The notes under the pieces: generated by a model
The model's database searches: none
What the model saw: the letters and a program-made list of their open reading frames with translations, nothing else
What the model was told of the DNA's origin: nothing
Program-made: the position numbers and the translations under genes
NCBI GenBank assembly: GCA_018780035.1
Contig: JADMKE010000014.1
Coordinates: forward strand, 73,271 to 137,270
Source of the DNA: Candidatus Sericytochromatia bacterium
GTDB lineage: Bacteria; Cyanobacteriota; Sericytochromatia; UBA7694
Reading direction: 5' to 3'
DNA: 64,000 nucleotides
Shown here: positions 1-52,251 of the stretch, in pieces
Position numbering within the stretch: position 1 is the stretch's first letter
Layout of the letters: every line of letters begins with the position of its first letter

Positions 1-2723
1 ATCCAGACTATTACGAAGGTATAGAGCATAATCCAATATTTTTTGATCGGATGGCATTTGATTTGCCAAAATTTTTGTTTTTCCTTCATTAAGCTGATAA
101 CGTAACTGGATAAACTCTTGAGCAATAAGCATAAGATGGGACGGTATTTTTAAAATATCCGAAATACCCTCATCTATTTTTTGAATCAATGTCACATTAT
201 TGGTTTTATTAAATAAATCCCTATCTGAATCAGATACTGATAATTTTCGATGCAACTGAGCAAGTTCGTCAATTTGTTTAGCAGTCAAATCAGGGACAGG
301 AATACTTGTAATTTCCTCTGAAGAAAACCGATTACGATCGATTCCCCAGCCTTTACAATTAAAAAACAATAAATATTTCCCTATATTTGAATTTAAATAC
401 AGGGAAAGTGAGCGCAAATAATCTGAATCTTTTACCGGAGCGGATAAACCAATTTGCGCACCTGGGAATAAAAAATCTTGATCGCTATAAGCGGCATAGG
501 CTGGTGTCAAATAAATATGAGGGGCTAATGCTATGTCTAACCCTGATACCACTCCATTGTAATAAAACGCTTGTTTGTTATCCAGAGTTTCAATGGCCAA
601 ACCAGGAACAGTTAAACAAATACGCTTGGGCATTAATTTTGCATTCAGAAGTTGATACGTAGGCATCTCACCGATTAAAACGTTTTGGTAGGTCTTATTT
701 TGTTCGCTGACAACAGAGCGCCCTTGAGAGAGTTTCCATTGACGCGTTGTAATTAAATCTCCAAGGGTCGTTGTGAATATTCTTTTGAATCGCGTCAAAG
801 CTTGTTCATCACGAGAATTTCCCCACAAAGCCTGTTTCCAGATAAAGAAATCACCTGATTCTGCAAGAGATGGATCTATTGTTTTAATCTCATCCTCGTA
901 AAAGGTCAGTGCCCAAATCCGCTTTTGGTCTGTTGAACGATTCAAGGTTTGGTTAATAACAAAAGGCCCAAAATGAATGATCGGAGATTTGATTTGTTCT
1001 GATTTTGCTTTTGAATAAATCAGTGTTGCTGCCCGAGTTTTTGCTCTCCCAGCAAACAGCACATAAGCTAGATTTGAGAAGTTAGTAATCCTTTTAACTT
1101 GGTTTTGATTAAAAAATACTTGACGGTATTTGAAAGAGGTTTGATTAAATAAGCTTGTAGCTTTAATCAGTAAGGCCACACAACCATTTTCTGCCAAGGC
1201 TTCTGTTACACGCCAACTAAAAGCTTCACTGAGACAGTATTGACCAACAGGATATCGGTTGACATTCTTATTTAACCAATCCCAGAAATGAGGTTGATCT
1301 TGTTTTAATTGATTTTTATTGAGTTCAGTCCAAGGCGGATTGCCAATAATCCAATCAAACTTTAAATCGTTTTTCCAAATACTAGCTTGGTCATCAAAAA
1401 AGTCAGCATAGAAGATATTTCGATTATGAAGACATGGGAAACGAAAATCTTTATTTTCATGTAAATCAGGGGCTTCAACATAACTTAAAAGTGTAAGTAA
1501 TAGACTAAACTCAGTTATATAACAAGCTTGCTCAATCAGTTCAACACCATAAATATTTTCTTGTAAGAGCCTACTTAATTTTTGAAGTGTGAGTTTTTTG
1601 CCCTTATTTTTGCGTATTTCTATTTCAATTAAACGGCGATAAGACAAAACCAAAAACACTCCAGAACCACAAGAAGGATCAAGGATTTTCATACCTTTTT
1701 CTAAGGGTTTGACACTGTTTAATTCACAAAGTAAATAATCAGCAACAAATTCACGGGTATAAACGGCTCCAGCATGTTTAGCTTGGCCTTCTGAGTGTAA
1801 GAATTGTTCATAAATCGAAGAGAGCATTTCTATGGGAATACAAGAAAAATCGTAAATTTTAAAATCAGGTAAGACCAATTGACCAGAGACCTGATCACCT
1901 CTAAAAACCGCAGCTACAAAATGAATAAATTCGTCAGCCTTTACACCCAATTCTTGAATGTTTAAAGGAAAAACTTGCCCGTTAAAACGCTGTTCCAAAA
2001 CCATTATCAAGGTTTGCAAAGCTTGGGAAGAGGTCTGATCACCAGTAATATTACTGAGTTTAAGCCCATATTGTGCGAGCCAAGCATCTGTTAGAATTTC
2101 GCGTTCAACCAAATAGTAAATATAAATATATTTCCCAATCAAACAGTGTGCCAACTTGCGTTCAATACCTTTAGAAATGAGGGCATCACTAAGTTCTTTG
2201 AGGCTTTTGAGCAGACGCTGATCTACCCGTTTTTCAGGAGTTACATTTTTGGATTGGGTTTGCCATATACGCCCAGAATCTATTTCATGAGCATAAAAAT
2301 CTTGGAGAGTTCTAGCAATCTCTGCTGCGTTTAGAGCTGACTCAGCTATTGGAGTATCTCGGCTTTGAGGATCTGAATTAAAATCAAAGCCACGATACAC
2401 TTTGACACGCTGAGGAAGAATGATGATAAGAAAAGGAGCTGCACCCAAATTCCAAAGTTTTTGATGAACTTTTCTGGCCTCTTGCTCTGTCTGAGCTTTT
2501 ACGACATGAACAGCAGGACGAGGAGGTAAAAGGGGCACTTGCTCTGATGAGGGAGTGGCACTGGTACGAAAAATGTAAGCACCACAAACATCCACGGTGG
2601 TTTCTTTTTTAAAGACCCGCCAAAGTGGCAAATTAAACTCATCTGCTTTATCTTCAGTTATCCAAGCATCTCCTGAATCAGGAGATGTGTAGCCGAGTTG
2701 TTCCAAAACTTGATTTGGATGCA
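1..2723 (-). CDS. N6-adenine DNA methyltransferase, large single-chain Type IIG (MmeI-like) or BREX PglX-like; partial. ATG at 2723; C-terminus runs past position 1, so at least 907 aa. Not in the ORF track because it has no in-window stop.
   Basis: Hand translation of the minus strand is open from 2723 to position 1. Motif I (K)ILDPSCGSGVFLV at about 1661-1700 and motif IV DWIIGNPPW at about 1331-1357, with about 330 aa N-terminal and at least 300 aa C-terminal to the catalytic core. Region is about 38% GC against about 58% elsewhere. Confidence 0.75.
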
Positions 2724-2954
2724 TGTTCTCACAATTTTGAGGTTGATATTTTTAGCGAACAGAGCAATAAAAGGACGGCTCCAGTCAATTGTAACACGGT
2801 TTTTTTGATGCCTAAACAAAATTTAACATCTAGGATCTTGAAAATTAAACTGTTGTATTCAAAACCTCTTTTAGGCTCTTATTAATTATTGAGTTGTTTT
2901 AAATGCAATACATCTACATTTGTTTATCTGACTCGACTTTTTACCCATAACAGC

Positions 2955-3143
2955 AATATTTGCAGACTTATCTATTTTACGCAAAATGAAGGTTCAGCCA
3001 GTATCCTCCGTTGGCCAAGGGCCTGATAAGAGAGGGCAACAGGAACCCCGCCGGTCCAGGATGGACAAAGGCGGGGTGACTCTTAGCCTGTTGCACGCAG
3101 GACGCGTGCGGCAGGCGGCCCGAACGTCAGGCCCTTGTGCCAA
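2955..3143 (-). repeat. Copy A of a conserved structured element of about 145 nt (GC-rich 16-bp closing stem, conserved ACGTTCGGGCCGCC box, internal hairpins) plus a conserved AT-rich 3' tail, sitting at the GC-content junction
   Basis: Reverse complement of 3001-3143 aligns with 63128-63272: a 5' block ttggcacaagGGCctgacgttcgggccgcc and a 3' block cagGCCcttggccaacgGAGGata; the tails share CTGAA...TTTTGCG...GTCT. The terminal stem carries compensatory changes between the copies. Confidence 0.5.
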
Positions 3144-3459
3144 CCGGAGCCACTAACCACGCTTCTGAAACCCCCATGAACGCCCAAACATGGACACATA
3201 AACACCTCTCGCCAAAGGGAAAAGGCTTTCCCTAGCACCAACACGGCTCGAAAAAAAATCACCCCAAAACACTGGAATATTTCCCCACCCCAATGGTATG
3301 CTCATCTTCAGACAGAGCAGCGCAGAGACAGGTTACTTCGGGATCTGCCGGTTGCAAAACCGTGCTGGTGCAAGTCCAGCTCCTCCGACTTCAACGGGGG
3401 ATGGCGAAAGTAGCAGACGCAGCAGATGTATAGCCCTGGCTCGCTTTTTTCTCTCTGTC

Positions 3460-5355
3460 TTATCCTTCAGCCAGCTCCGCCAATTCCAGCCAGCGCAATT
3501 CTTTGCTTTCGATCTCAGCTTCAAGCTCCCCAAAGGTTGCTGAAAGCTTCTGCAAACTGCCCGCCCCCAAATCACCCGGATTGGCCAGTTCCGCCTCCAT
3601 CTGCTGTTTGCGCGTCTGCAATTGCTCCAGCTCTTGCTCCAGCCCTTCGTACTCTTTTTGCTGCTTGTAACTCAACTTGGGCTTGTTCTCACGGGGTGGC
3701 TTGCGCTCAAGCGGCTTGTCTTCTTTGGATTTGTCTTCTTTGGCCTGTTGACGCAGGGCCTTTTCTTGCTCCTGCTGAGCCAACCAATAATCGGTATAAT
3801 TGCCAGGGAAATAAAGCACCTGGCCGTCGCCCTCAAAGACAAAGAGGTGATTGACCAGGCGGTCCATAAACCAGCGGTCATGCGAGACCACCAGCAAATT
3901 GCCTTTGAAGTCCTGGAGAAAGTCTTCAAGCACCTCAATCGTGGCAATATCCAAATCGTTGGTGGGTTCGTCCAGAATCAAGAAATTGGGATTTTGCAAA
4001 AGTACAGTCAGCAGATACAAGCGCCGCTTTTCACCCCCACTGAGGGTTGAGACTTGGCGCCAATGCACAGGCGCAGGAAAGAGAAAGCGCTCCAGCATCT
4101 GGGCTGCCGTGATCTGGCCCCCGCCGCGCACTGGCAAAACCTCAGCAATTTCTTTGATCACCTCAATCACCCGCTGGTCGTTGCGAAAATGCATATTCTG
4201 CTGGCGGTAATAGGCCAATTCAATGGTCTCCCCAATCACGACTTCGCCCTGATCCAACGGCTGCTCACCCACCAGCAAATTGAGGAAGGTACTTTTGCCG
4301 CTGCCATTGGGGCCCACCACGCCGATGCGGTCGCCTTTGGAGAAGTCATGGCTAAAATCTTTTAAAACCACTTTATCGCCAAAGGCCTTGGCCAGATGGT
4401 GCAATTCGAGAATTTTGCCCCCGAGGCGGGGCATGAGAATATCCAGGCTCAAAGCCCCTTCGCCAGAGACCGATTCCAGTTCATCTTGGAGCGAGAGAAA
4501 GGCCTCGGAGCGGGCCCGCGACTTGGTGCCCCGCGCGCGCGGCTGTTTGCGAAACCAGGCCAATTCGCGCCGGTAGCGGTTGCGGGCCACTTCGGTCTCG
4601 CGGGATTCGCGTTCGAGGCGGGCATATTTTTGCGCCAAATAATCGCTGAAGCCGCCGCTGACCCGGTAGAGTTGTCCCTGTTCGAGTTCGAGAATTTCAT
4701 CGCAGACCGCTTCGAGAAAATAGCGGTCGTGGGTGACCATTAAAAGCGTCATCGACTGGCTGGTCAGGTACTGCTCCAGCCATTCCATCATGTCGAGGTC
4801 GAGGTGGTTGGTGGGCTCATCCAGAATCAAGAAATCCGGGGCATCGAGCAGGGTTTGGGCCAGGGCGATGCGGCGCTTTTGGCCCCCCGACAAAACCGCC
4901 ACAGGCTGTTCCAGGCCATCAATTTTGAGGCGCGAGAGAATCTGCTGGGCCATAACCTGGTAATCCCAGGCATGTAGGCGTTCCACCTCGGCATAAGCCC
5001 GCTGAATTTGCGCGGTGTCTTGGCTTTTCAGCGCCACTTCGTAAGCGTGAATCGCCCTGAGTTCGGGGCGCTCTGAAGCATAAAGCGCCTGCATCACCGT
5101 GTGCTCGGGGTTGAGTTCGGGCTCCTGGGGCAAAAATCCAACGCGAATGTCTCGGGCCCATTCAATCCGGCCCTGATCTGCCGGTTCTTCGCCAGCCAGA
5201 ATGCGAATCAGGGTGGTTTTCCCCGTGCCATTGCGGGCCACCAGCGCCACCCGCTGGCCTTTGCTGAGCGAAAAGGCCACGTCTTTGAACAAAACTTTGT
5301 CATGGTATGCCTTGGACAGGCTGTCTACACGCAGATAAAACACAGGGGCCTCCAA
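3460..5355 (-). CDS. ABC-F family ATPase (tandem ABC domains, Uup/YheS-like, C-terminal coiled coil)
   Basis: Two Walker A motifs (ARNGTGKTTL and GPNGSGKSTF) and two ABC signatures (LSGGQKRRIAL and LSGGEKRRLYL); no transmembrane domain; charged coiled-coil tail. Confidence 0.9.
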   Translation of the reverse strand: MEAPVFYLRVDSLSKAYHDKVLFKDVAFSLSKGQRVALVARNGTGKTTLIRILAGEEPADQGRIEWARDIRVGFLPQEPELNPEHTVMQALYASERPELRAIHAYEVALKSQDTAQIQRAYAEVERLHAWDYQVMAQQILSRLKIDGLEQPVAVLSGGQKRRIALAQTLLDAPDFLILDEPTNHLDLDMMEWLEQYLTSQSMTLLMVTHDRYFLEAVCDEILELEQGQLYRVSGGFSDYLAQKYARLERESRETEVARNRYRRELAWFRKQPRARGTKSRARSEAFLSLQDELESVSGEGALSLDILMPRLGGKILELHHLAKAFGDKVVLKDFSHDFSKGDRIGVVGPNGSGKSTFLNLLVGEQPLDQGEVVIGETIELAYYRQQNMHFRNDQRVIEVIKEIAEVLPVRGGGQITAAQMLERFLFPAPVHWRQVSTLSGGEKRRLYLLTVLLQNPNFLILDEPTNDLDIATIEVLEDFLQDFKGNLLVVSHDRWFMDRLVNHLFVFEGDGQVLYFPGNYTDYWLAQQEQEKALRQQAKEDKSKEDKPLERKPPRENKPKLSYKQQKEYEGLEQELEQLQTRKQQMEAELANPGDLGAGSLQKLSATFGELEAEIESKELRWLELAELAEG

Positions 5356-5489
5356 ATGGGGAATACTCTATTCTGCCACAGGCCAGGAAAGTCAGGGAAA
5401 GATGCAGGCCCAGAACAGGATGAAAACAGGATGAAAACAGGCCCAGAAAAGCCCCCAAAAGAACCACGTAAAAAAATGGCAACCGTATG

Positions 5490-5518
5490 TTGACAATGTT
5501 AACATTAGATGTTTTAAT
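5490..5518 (+). promoter_or_regulatory. Sigma70-like promoter (TTGACA, 17-nt spacer, TTTAAT) with embedded palindrome TGTTAACA, upstream of 5536
   Basis: Read directly: ttgaca atgttaacattagatgt tttaat. Confidence 0.45.
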
Positions 5519-5535
5519 ATTTTTATGAGATAAAA

Positions 5536-6360
5536 ATGCTCTCAAAAACAAACACAACTCAGGTGGACAAAGCAATGGGTGATATCAACAGCTCTTTCGT
5601 CAAACAGCAAATTCAAAACTTGAACCAAGTCAAGCCACAACAAACACAGAACACAGAGAAAAAGCCTGTGGAGTCTTCGATTGGTCAAACTGAATTTCAA
5701 GCGCGCAAAGCCATGTTTGAAAAACAGACATCCCGCGAACCTGAATTGGGACAAGAGATACGTGGACAAGTGGAATCGGGTCTGAATGAGATCAGCGGCG
5801 AAAAACTTCAGAAAAATTTTAAGCTCTTTGAGAGCACATTTATAGGAGATGCCGAAAAGGCAAGCTCTGCTGAACCCCCCTCGTTTCCTGAGCACCCCAA
5901 ACAGGTCCAAATGCCCCAGCATCCCCATGTCGAGGAAATCGACCTTGAAGAAGAGCAAAACGATGGCAAGGAAACCGAAGAATCGCCTTCCTTGACGGTC
6001 AAAGAGCCCTCTCAACCCGTCTCAACAGAAGTAGGAAATGCCGAAATGGCGAGCTCTAATGAGCCACCCCGGCTTCCCCAACACCCCAAACAGATCGAAA
6101 TGCCCCCGCACCCCAAACAGGTCGAGGAAATCAACCTTGAAGAAGAGCAAAACGGTGGAGAGGAAGAACAAACCCTTGAGCAAACAGAGCAGCCCAAAAC
6201 GGAGCAGCCCAACCGGCCGGTAAATGCCAATCACCCACCTAGCTCCCCTCCCGTTATCCATTCTGGCAAAGAAAACCCACTGAATGTATCCGTCAACCCG
6301 CCCAAGCAACCACAACAGTCCGAAGCAGATGTCAACGAAGCCGACGAAGACGAGATGTAA
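5536..6360 (+). CDS. Acidic, Pro/Glu-rich hypothetical protein with two long internal tandem repeats
   Basis: Repeat SSxEPPxxPxHPKQxxMPxHPxVEEIxLEEEQN occurs twice; promoter-like sequence upstream. The antisense ORFs 5542..6015 and 6022..6528 were judged spurious. Confidence 0.55.
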   Translation: MLSKTNTTQVDKAMGDINSSFVKQQIQNLNQVKPQQTQNTEKKPVESSIGQTEFQARKAMFEKQTSREPELGQEIRGQVESGLNEISGEKLQKNFKLFESTFIGDAEKASSAEPPSFPEHPKQVQMPQHPHVEEIDLEEEQNDGKETEESPSLTVKEPSQPVSTEVGNAEMASSNEPPRLPQHPKQIEMPPHPKQVEEINLEEEQNGGEEEQTLEQTEQPKTEQPNRPVNANHPPSSPPVIHSGKENPLNVSVNPPKQPQQSEADVNEADEDEM

Positions 6361-6400
6361 AACGGCAGGAAACCTCTGGTGTCTTGGTTTCCAAAGCTGG

Positions 6401-8200
6401 TTAATTCTGGGCCAAGGCGCAAGCCGCTTCGACTTTGAGCTGACAGGCCTTTTGAAAGCTCTGTTTGGCCTCTGCGCCTTTGCCCGCTTGGGTCTGAATC
6501 TGGCCCAATTGGTACCAAGCGGGGCCATAGTCTGCCTGCAAACTCAGGGCTTTTTCCAGGTCGGTCTGGGCCAGATCGTATTTTTTCTGGTTCAGATAGA
6601 CCTCTGCGCGCGAGCTGAGAATATCTGGCGAGTCGGGAAAGGCCTTGAGCACCGTTGCATATTCGGCCAAGGCCTCTTCATGCCGCCCCGTCCAATTGTA
6701 AATATCTCCACGCATCACATGGGCAGCCAGAACCCGTGGATCGAGTTCGAGAATGCGCGTGGCATCCCCCAGCGCGATCTCGTATTGTTTACTCTGGATC
6801 GCCAAAACCGCCCGCGCTTTAAAGGCCTGCAAAAATTGATTGTCGGCCTTGATGGTGGCAGTATAAGCGGCAATGGCTTTGTCAGGCTGTCCCTGGTTTT
6901 CATGAATCTGGCCGATATAAAAATGGGCAGAGGCATTACCCGGTGCCATTTTTGTAATCCACTCAAAATCTGCCAGGGCCTGGGGAAAATTTTTGAGTTG
7001 GGCATGGGTCAAGCCACGATTGCCATAGGCATCGAGAAAATTTGGCTGCAGCACAATCGCCTGGTCAAAGGCCTGCAGCGCCTGATCAGATTTGCCCATT
7101 TGATTCAGGGCGATGCCACGCAAATTCTGACTTTCGGCACGCTGGGGCTCCAATTTGAGGGCCAGTTCAAAATCCGCGAGGGCTTTAACGGGCTCACGCA
7201 CTTCGAGGTAGAGGCGGCCCCGGCTGTTGAGAATCGCCGCTTGGCTGATCAGCGGAAAATCTGTCGAAACGGGACTTTTGACGCTCAGGGCTTGGCTATA
7301 CGCGGCCAGGGCCTTTTCAAAATCCCCCTGGGCGGCATAGAGGTCGCCCATATTGGTATAGGGATTGGGACTGTCTTGGTGTTTGAGAGAGGCTTGAAAG
7401 CGCTCCAACGCTTTGGTCGGCTGGTTTTGAGCGGCATAGACCAAGCCCTGATTGTTGTAGGCATCGGCCAGATTCGGTTGGTATTTGATCGCCTGTTCAA
7501 AATGGGCCAAGGCCTCAGCATAACGATCCTGGGTATAGTCAATCACGCCGAGATAATTGTAAATCCGGGCATACTCTTGAGGGGTTGCCGGTTTGAACTG
7601 CAGGGCCTGCTTAAAATCTGCTTGGCTGGCCGGGTATTGCCCACGGGTATAATAATAAATGCCACGGGCCGTCAGAATTTCTGGGTTTTTGGGATCGCGT
7701 TTGAGGGCCTGGGTCAAATCTTCCAGGGCACCTTCGTTCTGTTTGAGGATGATCCGCAACAGGCCACGGGTAAGGTAGGCATCGCCATAATTGGGATCGG
7801 CTTTGAGGGCCTGAGTCAGATCTTCGTGGGCCAAGTCCAGCTTGCGCCAGACCATTTGTACCTTGGCTCGGCCATTGAGCGCGGCGGCATGGCTGGGTTT
7901 GAGTTTAAGTGCTTGGTTGAACTGGGCCAGGGCCTTGTCAAATTGATTCAGACCGCCATAGGCCCGCCCCAGGCGCACATAGACTTCGGGATCTTTGGGA
8001 GCCTGTTTGACGGCCTTTTGGCTGAGTTCCAAGGCTTTTTGCCATTGACTGGCCTTGAGGGCCTGATCCGCCGATTGCAACAGAGAAGACGTCGTCACAG
8101 CCGACGGTGTGCTCGGGGCTGCCTGTGCTGGCAGACTGCCCACGCTCCCTGCGGCAGCGATCAAAATACTCAGAACCAATAGGCGTGTCAGTTTTATCAT
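6401..8200 (-). CDS. Secreted TPR-repeat protein
   Basis: N-terminal signal peptide MIKLTRLLVLSILIAAAGSVGSLPAQA; many 34-aa TPR units (e.g. AYNNQGLVYAAQNQPTKALERFQASLK). Confidence 0.8.
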   Translation of the reverse strand: MIKLTRLLVLSILIAAAGSVGSLPAQAAPSTPSAVTTSSLLQSADQALKASQWQKALELSQKAVKQAPKDPEVYVRLGRAYGGLNQFDKALAQFNQALKLKPSHAAALNGRAKVQMVWRKLDLAHEDLTQALKADPNYGDAYLTRGLLRIILKQNEGALEDLTQALKRDPKNPEILTARGIYYYTRGQYPASQADFKQALQFKPATPQEYARIYNYLGVIDYTQDRYAEALAHFEQAIKYQPNLADAYNNQGLVYAAQNQPTKALERFQASLKHQDSPNPYTNMGDLYAAQGDFEKALAAYSQALSVKSPVSTDFPLISQAAILNSRGRLYLEVREPVKALADFELALKLEPQRAESQNLRGIALNQMGKSDQALQAFDQAIVLQPNFLDAYGNRGLTHAQLKNFPQALADFEWITKMAPGNASAHFYIGQIHENQGQPDKAIAAYTATIKADNQFLQAFKARAVLAIQSKQYEIALGDATRILELDPRVLAAHVMRGDIYNWTGRHEEALAEYATVLKAFPDSPDILSSRAEVYLNQKKYDLAQTDLEKALSLQADYGPAWYQLGQIQTQAGKGAEAKQSFQKACQLKVEAACALAQN

Positions 8201-8318
8201 GGGTGCTTACACTTACTCTCTCAGGCTTTCTCTGGCGATTTAATTGCTTCAACCCATTCAAAAAACGGGCGTTCTTACCATGATAACACCCACAGACCCC
8301 GCTCCGGTTTCTGCTACA

Positions 8319-8918
8319 ATGAAAGGCATGAAATCTGTTTTGAGCGGTCTTACCGCTGTTCTTTATACTGTTCTTTGCGCTTCGATGTGGCTCCAGGCGC
8401 AGCCAGCCTTGGCCATTCTGGGCGAAGATTATCTCATGATGCGCACGTATTTCCACAAACCCCGGCGCTATGACTTGGTCCACGAAGCCAAATTTAAAAG
8501 TTTTGCCGAATTGCGCAAAGAAATGCGACCGATTCAGGTCCATTTTTTTGCCAATGCCGAAGGCAAGATCAGCAAAGAATTCTGGAGTGCCGATGCCAGC
8601 CCTTGGACCTTTGCGCAGGCCAATAAAATCCGCGATGCGATCATGCGCCGCAGCCACAGCAATGCCTCGGGCAACAGCCTCGGTCTGACTTGGTATTACA
8701 GCGATGGCGCACGTGTGATGTACCGGGTGATTGGCCATCGCGTGATCAGCATTATGGCTGTCGACAAAGATTTTAACCCAGGGGATCTGGGCAAAATGCC
8801 ACAGTGGTTTGCCCCCCCCACAGCCAAACCCCAATTTCCCAAATATCTGCCGCCCGCTTCCCCGGCAGCACCGGCATCACCGGCTCCCAAGGTCAGCCCA
8901 CCCCCCGCACAGCGATGA
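8319..8918 (+). CDS. Hypothetical secreted protein with Pro-rich C-terminus (start moved to the internal Met before the signal peptide)
   Basis: MKGMKSVLSGLTAVLYTVLCASMWLQAQPALA signal-like N-terminus; the ORF-track start at 8244 is further upstream. Confidence 0.45.
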   Translation: MKGMKSVLSGLTAVLYTVLCASMWLQAQPALAILGEDYLMMRTYFHKPRRYDLVHEAKFKSFAELRKEMRPIQVHFFANAEGKISKEFWSADASPWTFAQANKIRDAIMRRSHSNASGNSLGLTWYYSDGARVMYRVIGHRVISIMAVDKDFNPGDLGKMPQWFAPPTAKPQFPKYLPPASPAAPASPAPKVSPPPAQR

Positions 8919-10090
8919 AAAAAAATACATGGCTTTTGTCTGGCCTGACCTATCTCAGTGTGTGTTTTTCAGCATCAGCACAACCAGCCTGTTTGGGGCT
9001 GCTGACCGAGTGGCAACTCAAGGCCCCTTCTCCCGATGGCCAGCCAACCCTGCGCCAGCAATTTCTAGAACGCCTGTCTCAGGAACATCAGGCGCTGGGC
9101 CTGGAGCAAGACGAACCCCAGATTTTGCCTCACCCAGAGCCAGATCATCTGCTGCTGTGCCTCAGCGAAAATTACCCATTGCAACAGGTCTTGGCCAAGC
9201 GCACACAAAAAACGAGCTTTGAAATACGCCAGCCGATGAAAGGCACCCAAGACCTCTGGGCCCCCACAGGCCTAAACGGCTCTCAACTGCTCAAAGTTAC
9301 CCTCAAAAAGCAACCCGAACCCGGTGTCGAAATCCAATTGGATCACAATGGCAGCCAGATTCTGGCCCGTTTGAGTGTGGGGCTGCTCAAACAAAAAATG
9401 GGGCTGTATTTAAATGATCAGCTTTTAATCGCCCCCCAGGTCATGTCGGTCATTACCGATGGGCGGCTGCTGATCACGGGTTCAGATCTCAAAGCCATGG
9501 AAAACCTGACCCAAAAACTCGAATCGGCCCGTGTGCCTTGGCCCGATGTAGAATTATTGGCCATTGAAGTGGGGCACTACAGCGAGGCTTTGCAAAAACA
9601 AGTGCCGCCAGAGTTGCAGGCTTTGCTCAACAAACACTATCCCGGCTGGTATTTTCCCAAAGGCCTCAGTGCCATTGGCCAAGAACATTATTGGCAAGAA
9701 AAACCGCCTTTTACGCCGTTTTGGATCAAGGGCGATTTTGATGGCAATGGTACAGAGGACCACGCCCTGCAAATTCGCCACCCCGCAGGCAAAGAGGGCA
9801 GCCGCGAGACCATTCTGATCCTGAGTCGCCAAAAAACCAGCCAAAATCCAGGCCAAAATGCCAGCCAATATCTGCCACTGGTTTTGGACCAGACGGCCCC
9901 CGCCCATTTGCGCACGTGGTCGGGAGCCTCGCTCTGGCGTTACCCCGCAGGCAGCAAAATGTACAATTTTGAAACCAAAAAAGAATTTATCACAACCCAC
10001 GAAACATTGGCTCTGCACTTTTGGGGCAAAGGGGCCATGGCCTGGACGTGGGACGGAACCAGCTTTAAAGACATCACCATTGGCGACTGA
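8915..10090 (+). CDS. Hypothetical secreted protein/lipoprotein (start at MKKNTWLL; ATGA overlap with the upstream gene)
   Basis: Signal peptide MKKNTWLLSGLTYLSVCFSASA; 4-nt overlap with the previous stop suggests translational coupling. Confidence 0.5.
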   Translation: MKKNTWLLSGLTYLSVCFSASAQPACLGLLTEWQLKAPSPDGQPTLRQQFLERLSQEHQALGLEQDEPQILPHPEPDHLLLCLSENYPLQQVLAKRTQKTSFEIRQPMKGTQDLWAPTGLNGSQLLKVTLKKQPEPGVEIQLDHNGSQILARLSVGLLKQKMGLYLNDQLLIAPQVMSVITDGRLLITGSDLKAMENLTQKLESARVPWPDVELLAIEVGHYSEALQKQVPPELQALLNKHYPGWYFPKGLSAIGQEHYWQEKPPFTPFWIKGDFDGNGTEDHALQIRHPAGKEGSRETILILSRQKTSQNPGQNASQYLPLVLDQTAPAHLRTWSGASLWRYPAGSKMYNFETKKEFITTHETLALHFWGKGAMAWTWDGTSFKDITIGD

Positions 10091-10110
10091 TGGGCCTCAG
10101 GTCAAATGAA

Positions 10111-10145
10111 AAGCCCCTGCTTTTTCGCAGGGGCTTTGTTTTAAG
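10111..10145. terminator. Bidirectional rho-independent terminator between convergent genes
   Basis: aagcccctgc tttttc gcaggggctt followed by a T-run. Confidence 0.6.
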
Positions 10146-10169
10146 TCGAATTTTGATTCAGAGGCTGAA

Positions 10170-50931: not shown

Positions 50932-51792
50932 TCAGTCCAGCTTAAATCCTTGAGCTATATAAAATTTGAAAAGAGGGGTTTTCATAAATTCAGGAGCAAA
51001 AGATCCATAAAATCTCAGAAGAGCTTCTGTTTTTGATTTTATTGCTGGATATGTACTCGCTAATTCAATGATATGCTCAGGCTGAGAAAAGACCATGCCT
51101 GCAAAAGTATTAAAATCTTCTTCTAGGTCAGAAGTCGAGTACTGGCTTAAAAAACCGATTTTGAGCAAAGCGGTTTCTTCTTCTGTTTTAAATCCTTCCT
51201 TCAGAGCTTCAGTTCCTGGATTTTCCTTTGTTTCATAGACATACTGAAAGTTTTTGGGGTTAATTTTTCGCCACTCAGAAACTGGGAAATTAAATTTTTT
51301 TAATAAAATAGAGCTGAATTCATGATGAAATGAATCCAAAACAAAGAGACGGTTATCTGTGGATGTTTGATCAGAGAAATTGGCAATAAACAAATCCCCC
51401 TTACCCCTCTCATCATAAAAAGCATATGTTGCCCCATACAATTGGCCATAGAGGTAAAGTCTTTTTGAAATCGCAATGGCACTCAGGCTTTCACTTATAA
51501 CTTTCTTGGGGTAGTTTCCCAATGCTTCTTTTAATGTTTCACAGAAAACAGCCCCGCTGCCAATATCTATAGATTCCGAGTGGGCATCCATAGGGGGTTC
51601 TCTCCATGAGGAATAGAAGACAGAATCGGGCTTCTCATAAACAATTTTAATGGCATAGTCTTTTTCTAAGCCAGATACGCAGCCCTCAAAAGAGGATGTA
51701 TCCCCTTTGCTTTGGGGGATACATCCTAAAAAGAAAAAACAGAATAGCAAAAACCGAGCACGAACACGCTTTAACATGAGAGGGTCTGGCAC
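50932..51792 (-). CDS. Low-GC hypothetical lipoprotein
   Basis: Lipobox-like FFLGC; low GC. Confidence 0.45.
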   Translation of the reverse strand: MPDPLMLKRVRARFLLFCFFFLGCIPQSKGDTSSFEGCVSGLEKDYAIKIVYEKPDSVFYSSWREPPMDAHSESIDIGSGAVFCETLKEALGNYPKKVISESLSAIAISKRLYLYGQLYGATYAFYDERGKGDLFIANFSDQTSTDNRLFVLDSFHHEFSSILLKKFNFPVSEWRKINPKNFQYVYETKENPGTEALKEGFKTEEETALLKIGFLSQYSTSDLEEDFNTFAGMVFSQPEHIIELASTYPAIKSKTEALLRFYGSFAPEFMKTPLFKFYIAQGFKLD

Positions 51793-52251
51793 TCAGTCTT
51801 CTGAATTTTTAGTCAATTTGTTTGGGCTTAGGAATCGGTCCTGGTACAGGAGGCTTGGGTGTTCCACCAGAAGGCGGCTTCTCAGGTTTGGGTTGTCATC
51901 TGGTTTTGAATTAACAGACACGTTCACTTTTTTACCCGGCTTACGTGGACGGCGGCGGATCTCTAAAAACCGCTTTTTTTCCTCGTTGGGGAGTGTGTCA
52001 TAAAAGCTCTTGACCAACTCCATAAAGGGACGGGTTAAAAAGTTTTTGAGGTTGTATTGGTAAATTCGGGTTGTGCCCAGTCTTTCAGAAACGAGAATCC
52101 CTGCCCGTTCATAGCGTTCGAGCTGCTTCTGCACCTGACTCACGGAGATCTCAAAATCATGGGCAATGGCTGAAGCGTAGGTCTTCCCATAATGATGAAG
52201 ATGCAAAAATACCCGCATGGCAGTGGGACTGCCTAAAATAGTGTCTAACAT
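51793..52251 (-). CDS. Winged-helix transcriptional regulator (low-GC island)
   Basis: MRVFLHLHHYGKTYASAIAHDFEISVSQVQKQLERYERAGIL, a wHTH pattern. Confidence 0.5.
   Translation of the reverse strand: MLDTILGSPTAMRVFLHLHHYGKTYASAIAHDFEISVSQVQKQLERYERAGILVSERLGTTRIYQYNLKNFLTRPFMELVKSFYDTLPNEEKKRFLEIRRRPRKPGKKVNVSVNSKPDDNPNLRSRLLVEHPSLLYQDRFLSPNKLTKNSED

Follow-up and report, generated by a model that had tools for sequence, protein, structure and literature searches.

What cuts the DNA if the nuclease domain of a large restriction-type methyltransferase has decayed? This question is raised by a gene at the left end of the DNA analyzed here, a stretch of 64,000 nucleotides from a Candidatus Sericytochromatia bacterium (GCA_018780035.1, contig JADMKE010000014.1, positions 73,271 to 137,270 of the forward strand), which we refer to as the window. 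An earlier reading, made from the letters of the window without database searches (the sequence-only reading), had described this gene as a partial, low-GC N6-adenine methyltransferase, either related to Type IIG enzymes such as MmeI or similar to the BREX protein PglX, and possibly limited to methylation. We find that the gene is the upstream member of a two-gene unit, that the N-terminal nuclease site of its product appears from alignment to be degenerate throughout the family, and that cutting is most likely performed by a small, separate predicted nuclease encoded just beyond the window. The explanation that we favor, and hold to be rather probable, is a split restriction-modification (RM) system that derives from Type IIG enzymes and in which the nuclease would act in trans.

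The minus strand is open from position 2751 to position 1, a run of 917 codons, the last of which ends flush with position 1; its first ATG occupies 2724-2722 (-), such that 908 amino acids (aa) are encoded inside the window. Because the remaining five frames stay open for no more than 53-99 codons, the length of this open reading frame (ORF) is far above chance for DNA of 37% GC, and the ORF is real. Its absence from the ORF list is explained by the fact that the gene runs past the window end, and the sequence-only reading was right that the gene was invisible there. That reading also recognized an open minus strand of at least 907 aa but started it at 2723, in a frame that is full of stops. 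The gene could be completed with contig L082, which is 100% identical to window positions 3070-1 over 3070 bp, with zero mismatches, and is therefore the window's own leftward continuation (window position = 3071 - L082 position). There is no stop or frameshift just past position 1; instead, L082 adds 109 codons and a stop, for a complete large protein of 1017 aa (L082:347-3400). A full-length relative (P0001, 1016 aa, 97% identical) is encoded in a sister metagenome-assembled genome (MAG) of Candidatus Sericytochromatia, on a contig (L001) that is syntenic with the window.

The large protein has the domain order of a Type IIG enzyme: a nuclease-like N-terminal fold is joined by a helical connector to a gamma-class N6-adenine methyltransferase, after which comes a variable, putative recognition region. 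It matches the Pfam families Eco57I, N6_Mtase and MmeI_Mtase, with N6_Mtase and Eco57I above their cut-offs, and the best PADLOC models are Type IIG (REase_MTase_IIG) profiles, aligned over aa 82-889 (5e-58). Thus, the sequence-only reading of a single-chain N6-adenine methyltransferase of IIG/MmeI type holds, as do both motifs on which it relied, motif I and motif IV, which occur with motif I first, in the gamma-class order that is characteristic of Type IIG methyltransferase cores (their positions, and their occurrence among 68 full-length genomic homologues of the large protein, the set used for all family motif counts, are given in the table below). Type IIG RM enzymes are gamma-methyltransferases with an N-terminal DNA-cleavage domain (PMC3874165). 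The relationship to MmeI itself is more restricted: when compared with solved structures, neither the single sequence nor the family profile matches MmeI beyond its methyltransferase core (aa 276-466 for the profile), and the only MmeI domain matched in Pfam is PF20473 MmeI_Mtase (50 bits). Separate Pfam models exist for the N-terminal, helical, target-recognition and C-terminal domains of MmeI. None of these was matched in the Pfam search of the large protein at E <= 0.1, and the full domain set of the MmeI family (Type IIL) is not present.

The N-terminal domain retains the fold of a nuclease and, as judged from the family alignment, has lost the site. A model of the N-terminal 300 aa matches the N-domains of HsdM, DrdV, BpuSI, the nuclease domains of HsdR and proteins with a restriction endonuclease (RE)-like fold. 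The sequence-only reading had pointed to a degenerate 'D...VVK' arrangement; the site is degenerate, but the K of VVK (K76) occupies the consensus E position, while the consensus K position is held by Q78. Of the 68 family members, 46 keep E at the ExK position and 19 have the whole ExK; where the K would be, residues vary freely (Q, D, N, E, R, A and others). Gly fills the 'D' column in 46 members, and D together with ExK is complete in a single one. The catalytic PD...(D/E)xK that Type IIG enzymes carry in the same chain is therefore found neither in the window protein nor in the family as a whole. No acidic residue is invariant within aa 1-113, and in the beta-sheet core (aa 40-115) neither an acidic nor a basic residue is invariant, all invariant positions being Gly, aromatic or hydrophobic. 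Nevertheless, the mean pairwise identity of the N-terminal domain is 0.50, compared to 0.53 for the methyltransferase core; since the domain is as conserved as the core despite its decayed site, it is apparently retained for a non-catalytic role.

The gene that lies immediately downstream of the large gene, just outside the window, encodes a candidate for the missing cutting component. Its GTG start overlaps the TGA stop of the large gene by 4 bp (GTGA), and the window's own genome carries an intact copy. We examined 80 genome loci from many phyla, in which neighboring ORFs were clustered and the partner was then called by hidden Markov model (HMM). A family of ~220-aa proteins is encoded immediately downstream of the large gene on the same strand (median gap -3) in 70 of the 80 loci, and the remaining 10 stop at a contig edge, such that the partner is found in 70 of 70 loci with room for it. 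The reverse test gave the same result, with a large gene upstream in 73 of 73 partner-centered metagenome loci with room (7 others had none). The small nuclease is the only conserved neighbor across these 70 genome and 73 metagenome loci, and the linkage of the two genes is obligate in both directions.

By its fold and its conserved residues, the partner is predicted to be a PD-(D/E)xK nuclease. In alignments of 39-57 sequences, E42, D91 and K110 are invariant and E108 is conserved in at least 90% of the sequences. The AlphaFold2 model of the window genome's partner (P0122; predicted local distance difference test score, 90.3) places D91 before strand 92-96, and E108 and K110 within strand 104-113; the partner thus displays an acidic residue and a (D/E)xK on consecutive strands together with an upstream helix Glu, the arrangement expected of this superfamily. 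Weaker structural matches are to CdiA-CT toxins, RecU, Bax1 and NucC. No partner match was obtained in Pfam, NCBIfam, PHROGs, PADLOC or PDB sequences, and every annotated member of the family that we encountered is named 'hypothetical protein', although the family comprises 2,542 clusters at 50% identity (E <= 1e-3). The proposal in the sequence-only reading that a degenerate nuclease leaves an enzyme devoted to methylation alone is not supported, as a strictly co-occurring predicted PD-(D/E)xK nuclease gene overlaps the stop codon.

The origin and the organization of the partner were examined in several further ways. It is not a split-off copy of the N-terminal domain of the large protein, as the profile-profile probability in hhalign is 0.4%, and simple gene fission is therefore not the explanation. 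Each of the best 150 among the 2,542 partner relatives stands alone as a protein of 180-240 aa, and no usable (Rosetta-stone) fusion of large protein and partner occurs among them. One apparent fusion (L079) was rejected because it is a deletion-like locus in a MAG, in which a truncated large gene is joined in-frame to the partner; similarly, L006, in which only a fragment of the partner follows a truncated large gene, was set aside as a decaying copy.

Some loci carry additional genes or additional copies. In 11 of the 80 loci (e.g. L017:7457-7972), the large gene is preceded, at a distance of ~28 bp, by a same-strand gene for a MerR-family helix-turn-helix (HTH) protein (~170 aa), which may be a controller protein in one subclade, and in 3 loci (e.g. 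L014:7395-7907) a DUF1643 protein is encoded there instead; the window locus has neither. The sister MAG holds a second, paralogous two-gene system that is 56% identical (L025, contig JBFWRL010000091.1); it shares its N-terminal site and the first 25 residues of its partner with the copy from a Candidatus Blackallbacteria MAG (L003). Finally, one large gene (L037) lies on a contig of a Promethearchaeota (Asgard) MAG, which may be due either to transfer or to a binning error.

If specificity resides in the large protein, its recognition region might be expected to change while the partner stays the same, and this is the pattern that we observe. Conservation within the large protein is lowest, and indels are most frequent, in the region of aa ~441-960. 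Among 92 loci in which both proteins are full-length, we compared the 55 pairs with a partner identity of at least 0.85. The mean identity in these pairs is 0.92 for the N-terminal domain and 0.95 for the C-terminal tail, but only 0.60 for aa 601-950 (minimum 0.41). In one such pair (L028 and L094), the partner is 0.96 identical, the N-terminus 0.97 and the C-terminus 0.98, while the recognition block is 0.44 identical. When examined in 40-aa bins, aa 561-880 show 17-50% identity in cases in which the partner and both termini are 85-100% identical and the rest of the large protein stays at 82-96%, with the lowest bins (0.17-0.28) at aa 641-720; sliding bins place the boundaries of the exchanged block at about aa 441, near motif IV, and about aa 960. 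A putative C-terminal target-recognition domain is suggested by the reach of the PADLOC IIG profiles to aa 889 and by the variability and exchange of aa ~441-960. This pattern argues that specificity would reside in the large subunit and be swapped against a constant nuclease. Because the block swaps beside a constant partner, the partner itself is probably not sequence-specific: an autonomous endonuclease that kept its specificity would kill the cell once the methyltransferase next to it was retargeted.

A converse mosaic distinguishes the window genome from the sister MAG (L082 versus L001). Across window positions 371-2470 (aa ~85-785) the two differ by 1 mismatch in 2.1 kb, while divergence is ~10-12% at both ends of the large gene (the N-terminal tip and the last ~130 codons) and in the partner, and 8-16% in the flanking genome. 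This distribution suggests that methyltransferase and recognition block may have been exchanged recently between lineages by recombination.

We envision that the large subunit would recognize its target through the swappable region (aa ~441-960) and methylate adenine through its gamma-class N6-adenine methyltransferase, while the 223-aa PD-(D/E)xK partner, translationally coupled to it by the GTGA overlap, would supply cleavage in trans. The partner, with no sequence specificity of its own, would dock on the constant parts of the large subunit, either the apparently inactive N-terminal fold, the conserved tail at the C-terminus (aa 961-1016) or both, and would cut unmethylated DNA near the sites bound by the large subunit. 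Several considerations weigh against this explanation. We infer the physical complex of the two proteins from sequence patterns, and the divergence of the partner correlates about equally with that of all domains of the large protein (r 0.66-0.88), such that no docking surface is picked out. Recognition blocks that are 41-50% identical could in principle read the same sequence, and non-canonical catalytic residues in the N-terminal domain are still conceivable.

A further proposal, which we make more tentatively and regard as possible at a little less than an even chance, is that these systems constitute an unrecognized RM subtype, a motor-less 'M~S + R' organization. Here, the dead nuclease-fold domain would be a docking or licensing platform for one universal, non-specific nuclease that acts in trans and is retargeted simply by a swap of the recognition block.

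The strongest competing explanation is an ordinary Type II pair, in which the 223-aa protein is an autonomous endonuclease similar to BamHI and the large protein is its cognate, if unusually large, gamma-class methyltransferase. We consider this unlikely. Partners that are 85-96% identical occur beside recognition blocks that are 41-50% identical, and an unchanged endonuclease would then attack its host. Moreover, a plain methyltransferase has no need of a 300-aa RE-fold and connector that are conserved like the catalytic core, and it would be unusual for the fast-evolving Type IIP enzymes that one endonuclease family is tied to one methyltransferase family across phyla.

Less likely still, and in our estimation quite improbable, is an active single-chain Type IIG/IIL enzyme that uses non-canonical residues, with the small protein as a second-strand cutter, as in Type IIT enzymes, or as a regulator. 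The nuclease-like fold of the N-terminal domain, the E retained at the ExK position in a majority of the family and the minority of members with ExK are all compatible with such an enzyme, large-plus-small heterodimeric enzymes are known, and catalytic residues are sometimes recruited from elsewhere in a protein (PMC4081073). However, the beta-sheet core has no invariant acidic or basic residue, in the window protein K76 and Q78 stand where E and K would be expected, and the full triad is found in only one family member.

We give very little weight to the idea that the large protein is an epigenetic or orphan methyltransferase and that the small PD-(D/E)xK protein is a repair nuclease or a toxin held in check by the methyltransferase. 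The PD-(D/E)xK fold does serve many roles, as the CdiA-CT toxins, RecU, Bax1 and NucC among the weaker structural matches of the partner illustrate, but location in an island, patchy distribution across phyla, swapping of the recognition block and strict coupling of methyltransferase and nuclease form the pattern of restriction-modification.

The remaining possibility, that the gene encodes a BREX PglX or a DISARM methyltransferase or is a methyltransferase-only relic, is effectively refuted, since the weak matches of PglX, DrmMI and mad2 profiles and the methyltransferase core in common with solved PglX/BrxX structures are outweighed by NCBIfam BREX scores of 22-41 bits against cut-offs of 400-900, over only ~70 aa around motif I (about aa 343-430), by a DrmMI match of 28 bits over ~75 aa, by the lack of PglZ, BrxC, BrxL, BrxA/B or Drm genes within ~10-11 kb on either side (L082 and L001), by the lack of BREX genes among the conserved neighbors in the 80 genome loci and by the small nuclease as sole conserved neighbor. 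BREX, DISARM and MADS were all rejected on profile coverage, score and neighborhood; for DISARM, there is neither a full-length DrmMI match nor a set of Drm helicase, DUF1998 and PLD genes nearby. The sequence-only reading had placed any partner genes to the left of the window, and a partner is there, but it is the nuclease, while PglZ, BrxC, BrxL and Drm were not found. That reading had also named two outcomes that would speak against it, an interrupted frame just beyond position 1 and a stand-alone gamma-class methyltransferase among housekeeping genes; both were checked and neither was observed.

The proposed split system resembles several known systems and differs from each. Like Type IIG/IIL enzymes (MmeI, Eco57I, BpuSI, DrdV), the large protein has the order RE-fold, connector, gamma-class N6-adenine methyltransferase and putative C-terminal recognition region; its recognition block appears to be exchanged between loci, as happens in the MmeI family, PADLOC IIG profiles match nearly end to end, and DrdV and BpuSI are among the structural matches. 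Unlike these enzymes, the family has apparently lost the catalytic D...ExK throughout and has an obligate, separate nuclease gene attached to it, and the sequence similarity to MmeI is limited to the methyltransferase core. In Type III systems (Mod + Res, e.g. EcoP15I), an upstream M~S subunit recognizes and methylates DNA, and a downstream R subunit depends on M~S for its targeting; Res is ~900-1000 aa and has a superfamily 2 ATPase motor, and Mod is a beta-class methyltransferase. The order of an upstream recognition and methylation subunit followed by a downstream R subunit is the same here, but the R subunit is only 223 aa, without an ATPase, and the methyltransferase is of the gamma class. 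In Type IIT heterodimers (BsrDI, BtsI, BspD6I/BstNBI), a large subunit recognizes the site and a small subunit of ~186-220 aa, without specificity, adds a catalytic site (PMC4081073). The division into a site-recognizing large subunit and a small catalytic subunit would be similar; however, the Type IIT large subunit is an active nuclease, lacks a methyltransferase and is guarded by separate methyltransferases, while the large subunit here is a methyltransferase with an apparently dead nuclease site.

Another related case is that of Haloferax volcanii HVO_A0006 and HVO_A0237, for which a 'split' Type IIG system, with a methyltransferase and a separate PD-(D/E)xK nuclease, was hypothesized (PMC4389544). 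Both cases thus join a Type IIG-like methyltransferase with a separately encoded PD-(D/E)xK nuclease, but the Haloferax nuclease is a single, isolated case: a piece of a fused gene that is homologous to the Type IIG N-terminus, lies between transposases and is not linked to its proposed partner (PMC4389544). Here, in contrast, the partner is not homologous to the N-terminus, the large protein still carries the apparently dead domain, and the two genes form an operon that is conserved across phyla. BREX PglX/BrxX, finally, is likewise a large gamma-class N6-adenine methyltransferase with a motif I region in common, but the match is confined to the core and far under the cut-offs, and BREX genes are lacking nearby. 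We found no description of the two-gene family in the literature searched, the nearest being the Haloferax hypothesis.

Features of the large gene, its partner and the low-GC island (negative window coordinates lie to the left of the window, on contig L082)
Feature	Position	Strand	Basis or remark
Large subunit gene, aa 1-908 of 1017	1..2724	-	Open frame, family matches, L082 identity
N-terminal alpha/beta domain, aa 1-115, RE-like fold, no conserved catalytic residues	2380..2724	-	
Degenerate (D/E)xK remnant, RPAVHVVKAQ (family consensus RPAVYVAEAK)	2491..2520	-	Family alignment
Helical connector, aa 116-300, resembles HsdM N-domain and Type IIG connector	1825..2379	-	
Methyltransferase motif I, S-adenosylmethionine (SAM) binding, ILDPSCGSG, aa 347-355	1660..1686	-	DPxCGSG in 63/68 members
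Methyltransferase motif IV, catalytic, DWIIGNPPW, aa 457-465	1330..1356	-	GNPPW in 64/68 members
Variable block, putative target-recognition region, aa ~441-960 (aa 441-908 in window)	1..1404	-	Alignment variability, locus pairs
Predicted partner nuclease gene P0122, 223 aa	L082:3397-4068 = window -326 to -997 (off-window)	Same strand as large gene	Junction sequence
Low-GC island, in-window part	1..3000	.	Composition profiles, GC 0.30-0.42
Tandem array of five tRNA genes, one strand	L082:5509-5969 = window about -2438 to -2898		Far island edge

The composition of the locus is also informative about its origin. The GC content of the large gene is 37.2%, compared to a window mean of 0.506 and a median of 0.527 for 1-kb bins; the contrast of ~38% with a 58% genome described in the sequence-only reading is real, but the background is ~51-53%. 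The low-GC island totals ~5.4 kb, from window position ~3000 leftward to about -2430, where the tRNA array begins (Leu(CAA), Leu(UAA), Leu(GAG), Leu(CAG) and Cys(GCA)). Because the two-gene module lies in a low-GC island that adjoins this array, it was probably acquired horizontally. We found no att-like direct or inverted repeats of at least 11 bp that join both island boundaries, and no tRNA genes in window positions 1-12000.

To the left of the large gene, L082 carries in order the 223-aa partner, a 254-aa ORF, a Phd antitoxin gene with a VapC remnant, the five tRNA genes and, beyond them, genes for an AraC regulator, a 506-aa protein and a GGDEF/EAL protein. The 254-aa ORF (L082:4168-4932, +) has a signal-peptide-like N-terminus, the lowest GC in the island (0.31) and no family match in any library searched. 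The Phd/YefM antitoxin gene is followed by a 47-aa ORF whose match is confined to residues 1-44 of VapC (L082:5052-5443, -), and the two look like a decayed toxin-antitoxin pair inside the island. Both the 254-aa ORF and this remnant were rejected as parts of the system, as they are not conserved beside homologues. A stretch of ~3.2 kb between the tRNA array and the GGDEF/EAL gene (L082:6233-9438), which encodes the AraC-family regulator and the 506-aa protein, the latter with a weak PD40 repeat match, is missing from the sister MAG.

On the other side of the large gene, between it and an ABC-F gene, a structured, GC-rich element lies just outside the island (window 2990-3165) and is presumably the 'structured element' that the sequence-only reading had noted beside the gene. 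As a minus-strand RNA it has a minimum free energy of -97.6 kcal/mol (z = -6.95), and none of 200 shuffled sequences folds as well; it has no Rfam match at E <= 0.1. The only Rfam match nearby, a sub-threshold one to the Twister-sister ribozyme at window 3347-3406 (+) (26.2 bits versus a gathering score of 34, E = 0.026), is probably due to chance, though it falls in the same intergenic region. Farther into the window, positions 10910-17296 are missing from the sister MAG, are partly low in GC (0.34-0.41) and carry IS630-like transposase fragments (HTH_29, DDE_3); a 1075-aa ankyrin-repeat protein encoded at 13816-17043 (+) matches the PADLOC candidate family PDC-M72A at 7e-38. No second methyltransferase was found in this second low-GC segment of the window. 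One additional 1-kb bin, at 51001-52000, is low in GC (0.406 versus a background of ~0.53).

Judged by its sequences, the two-gene system appears to be both widespread and unannotated. If our favored explanation is correct, then pipelines of the defense-finder or REBASE type call this family a complete single-gene Type IIG enzyme or a plain methyltransferase and miss the cutting component. RM annotation in Cyanobacteria, Sericytochromatia, Acidobacteriota, Chloroflexota, Verrucomicrobiota and other phyla would benefit from a named profile for the partner. The proposed system would also add a missing organization, R + dead-r~gammaM~S, to the continuum that links Type I, Type IIG and Type III systems, and it would reveal the fate of a fused nuclease domain after cleavage has been outsourced, namely its retention under selection no weaker than that acting on the methyltransferase core. 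The combination of a constant nuclease with a naturally swappable recognition block would be attractive for the engineering of new specificities. If these systems are indeed a distinct subtype, the mechanism that current annotation implies for many loci labeled 'Type IIG' or 'class I SAM-dependent DNA methyltransferase' would be wrong, and the family would offer a natural modular scaffold for programmable cleavage.

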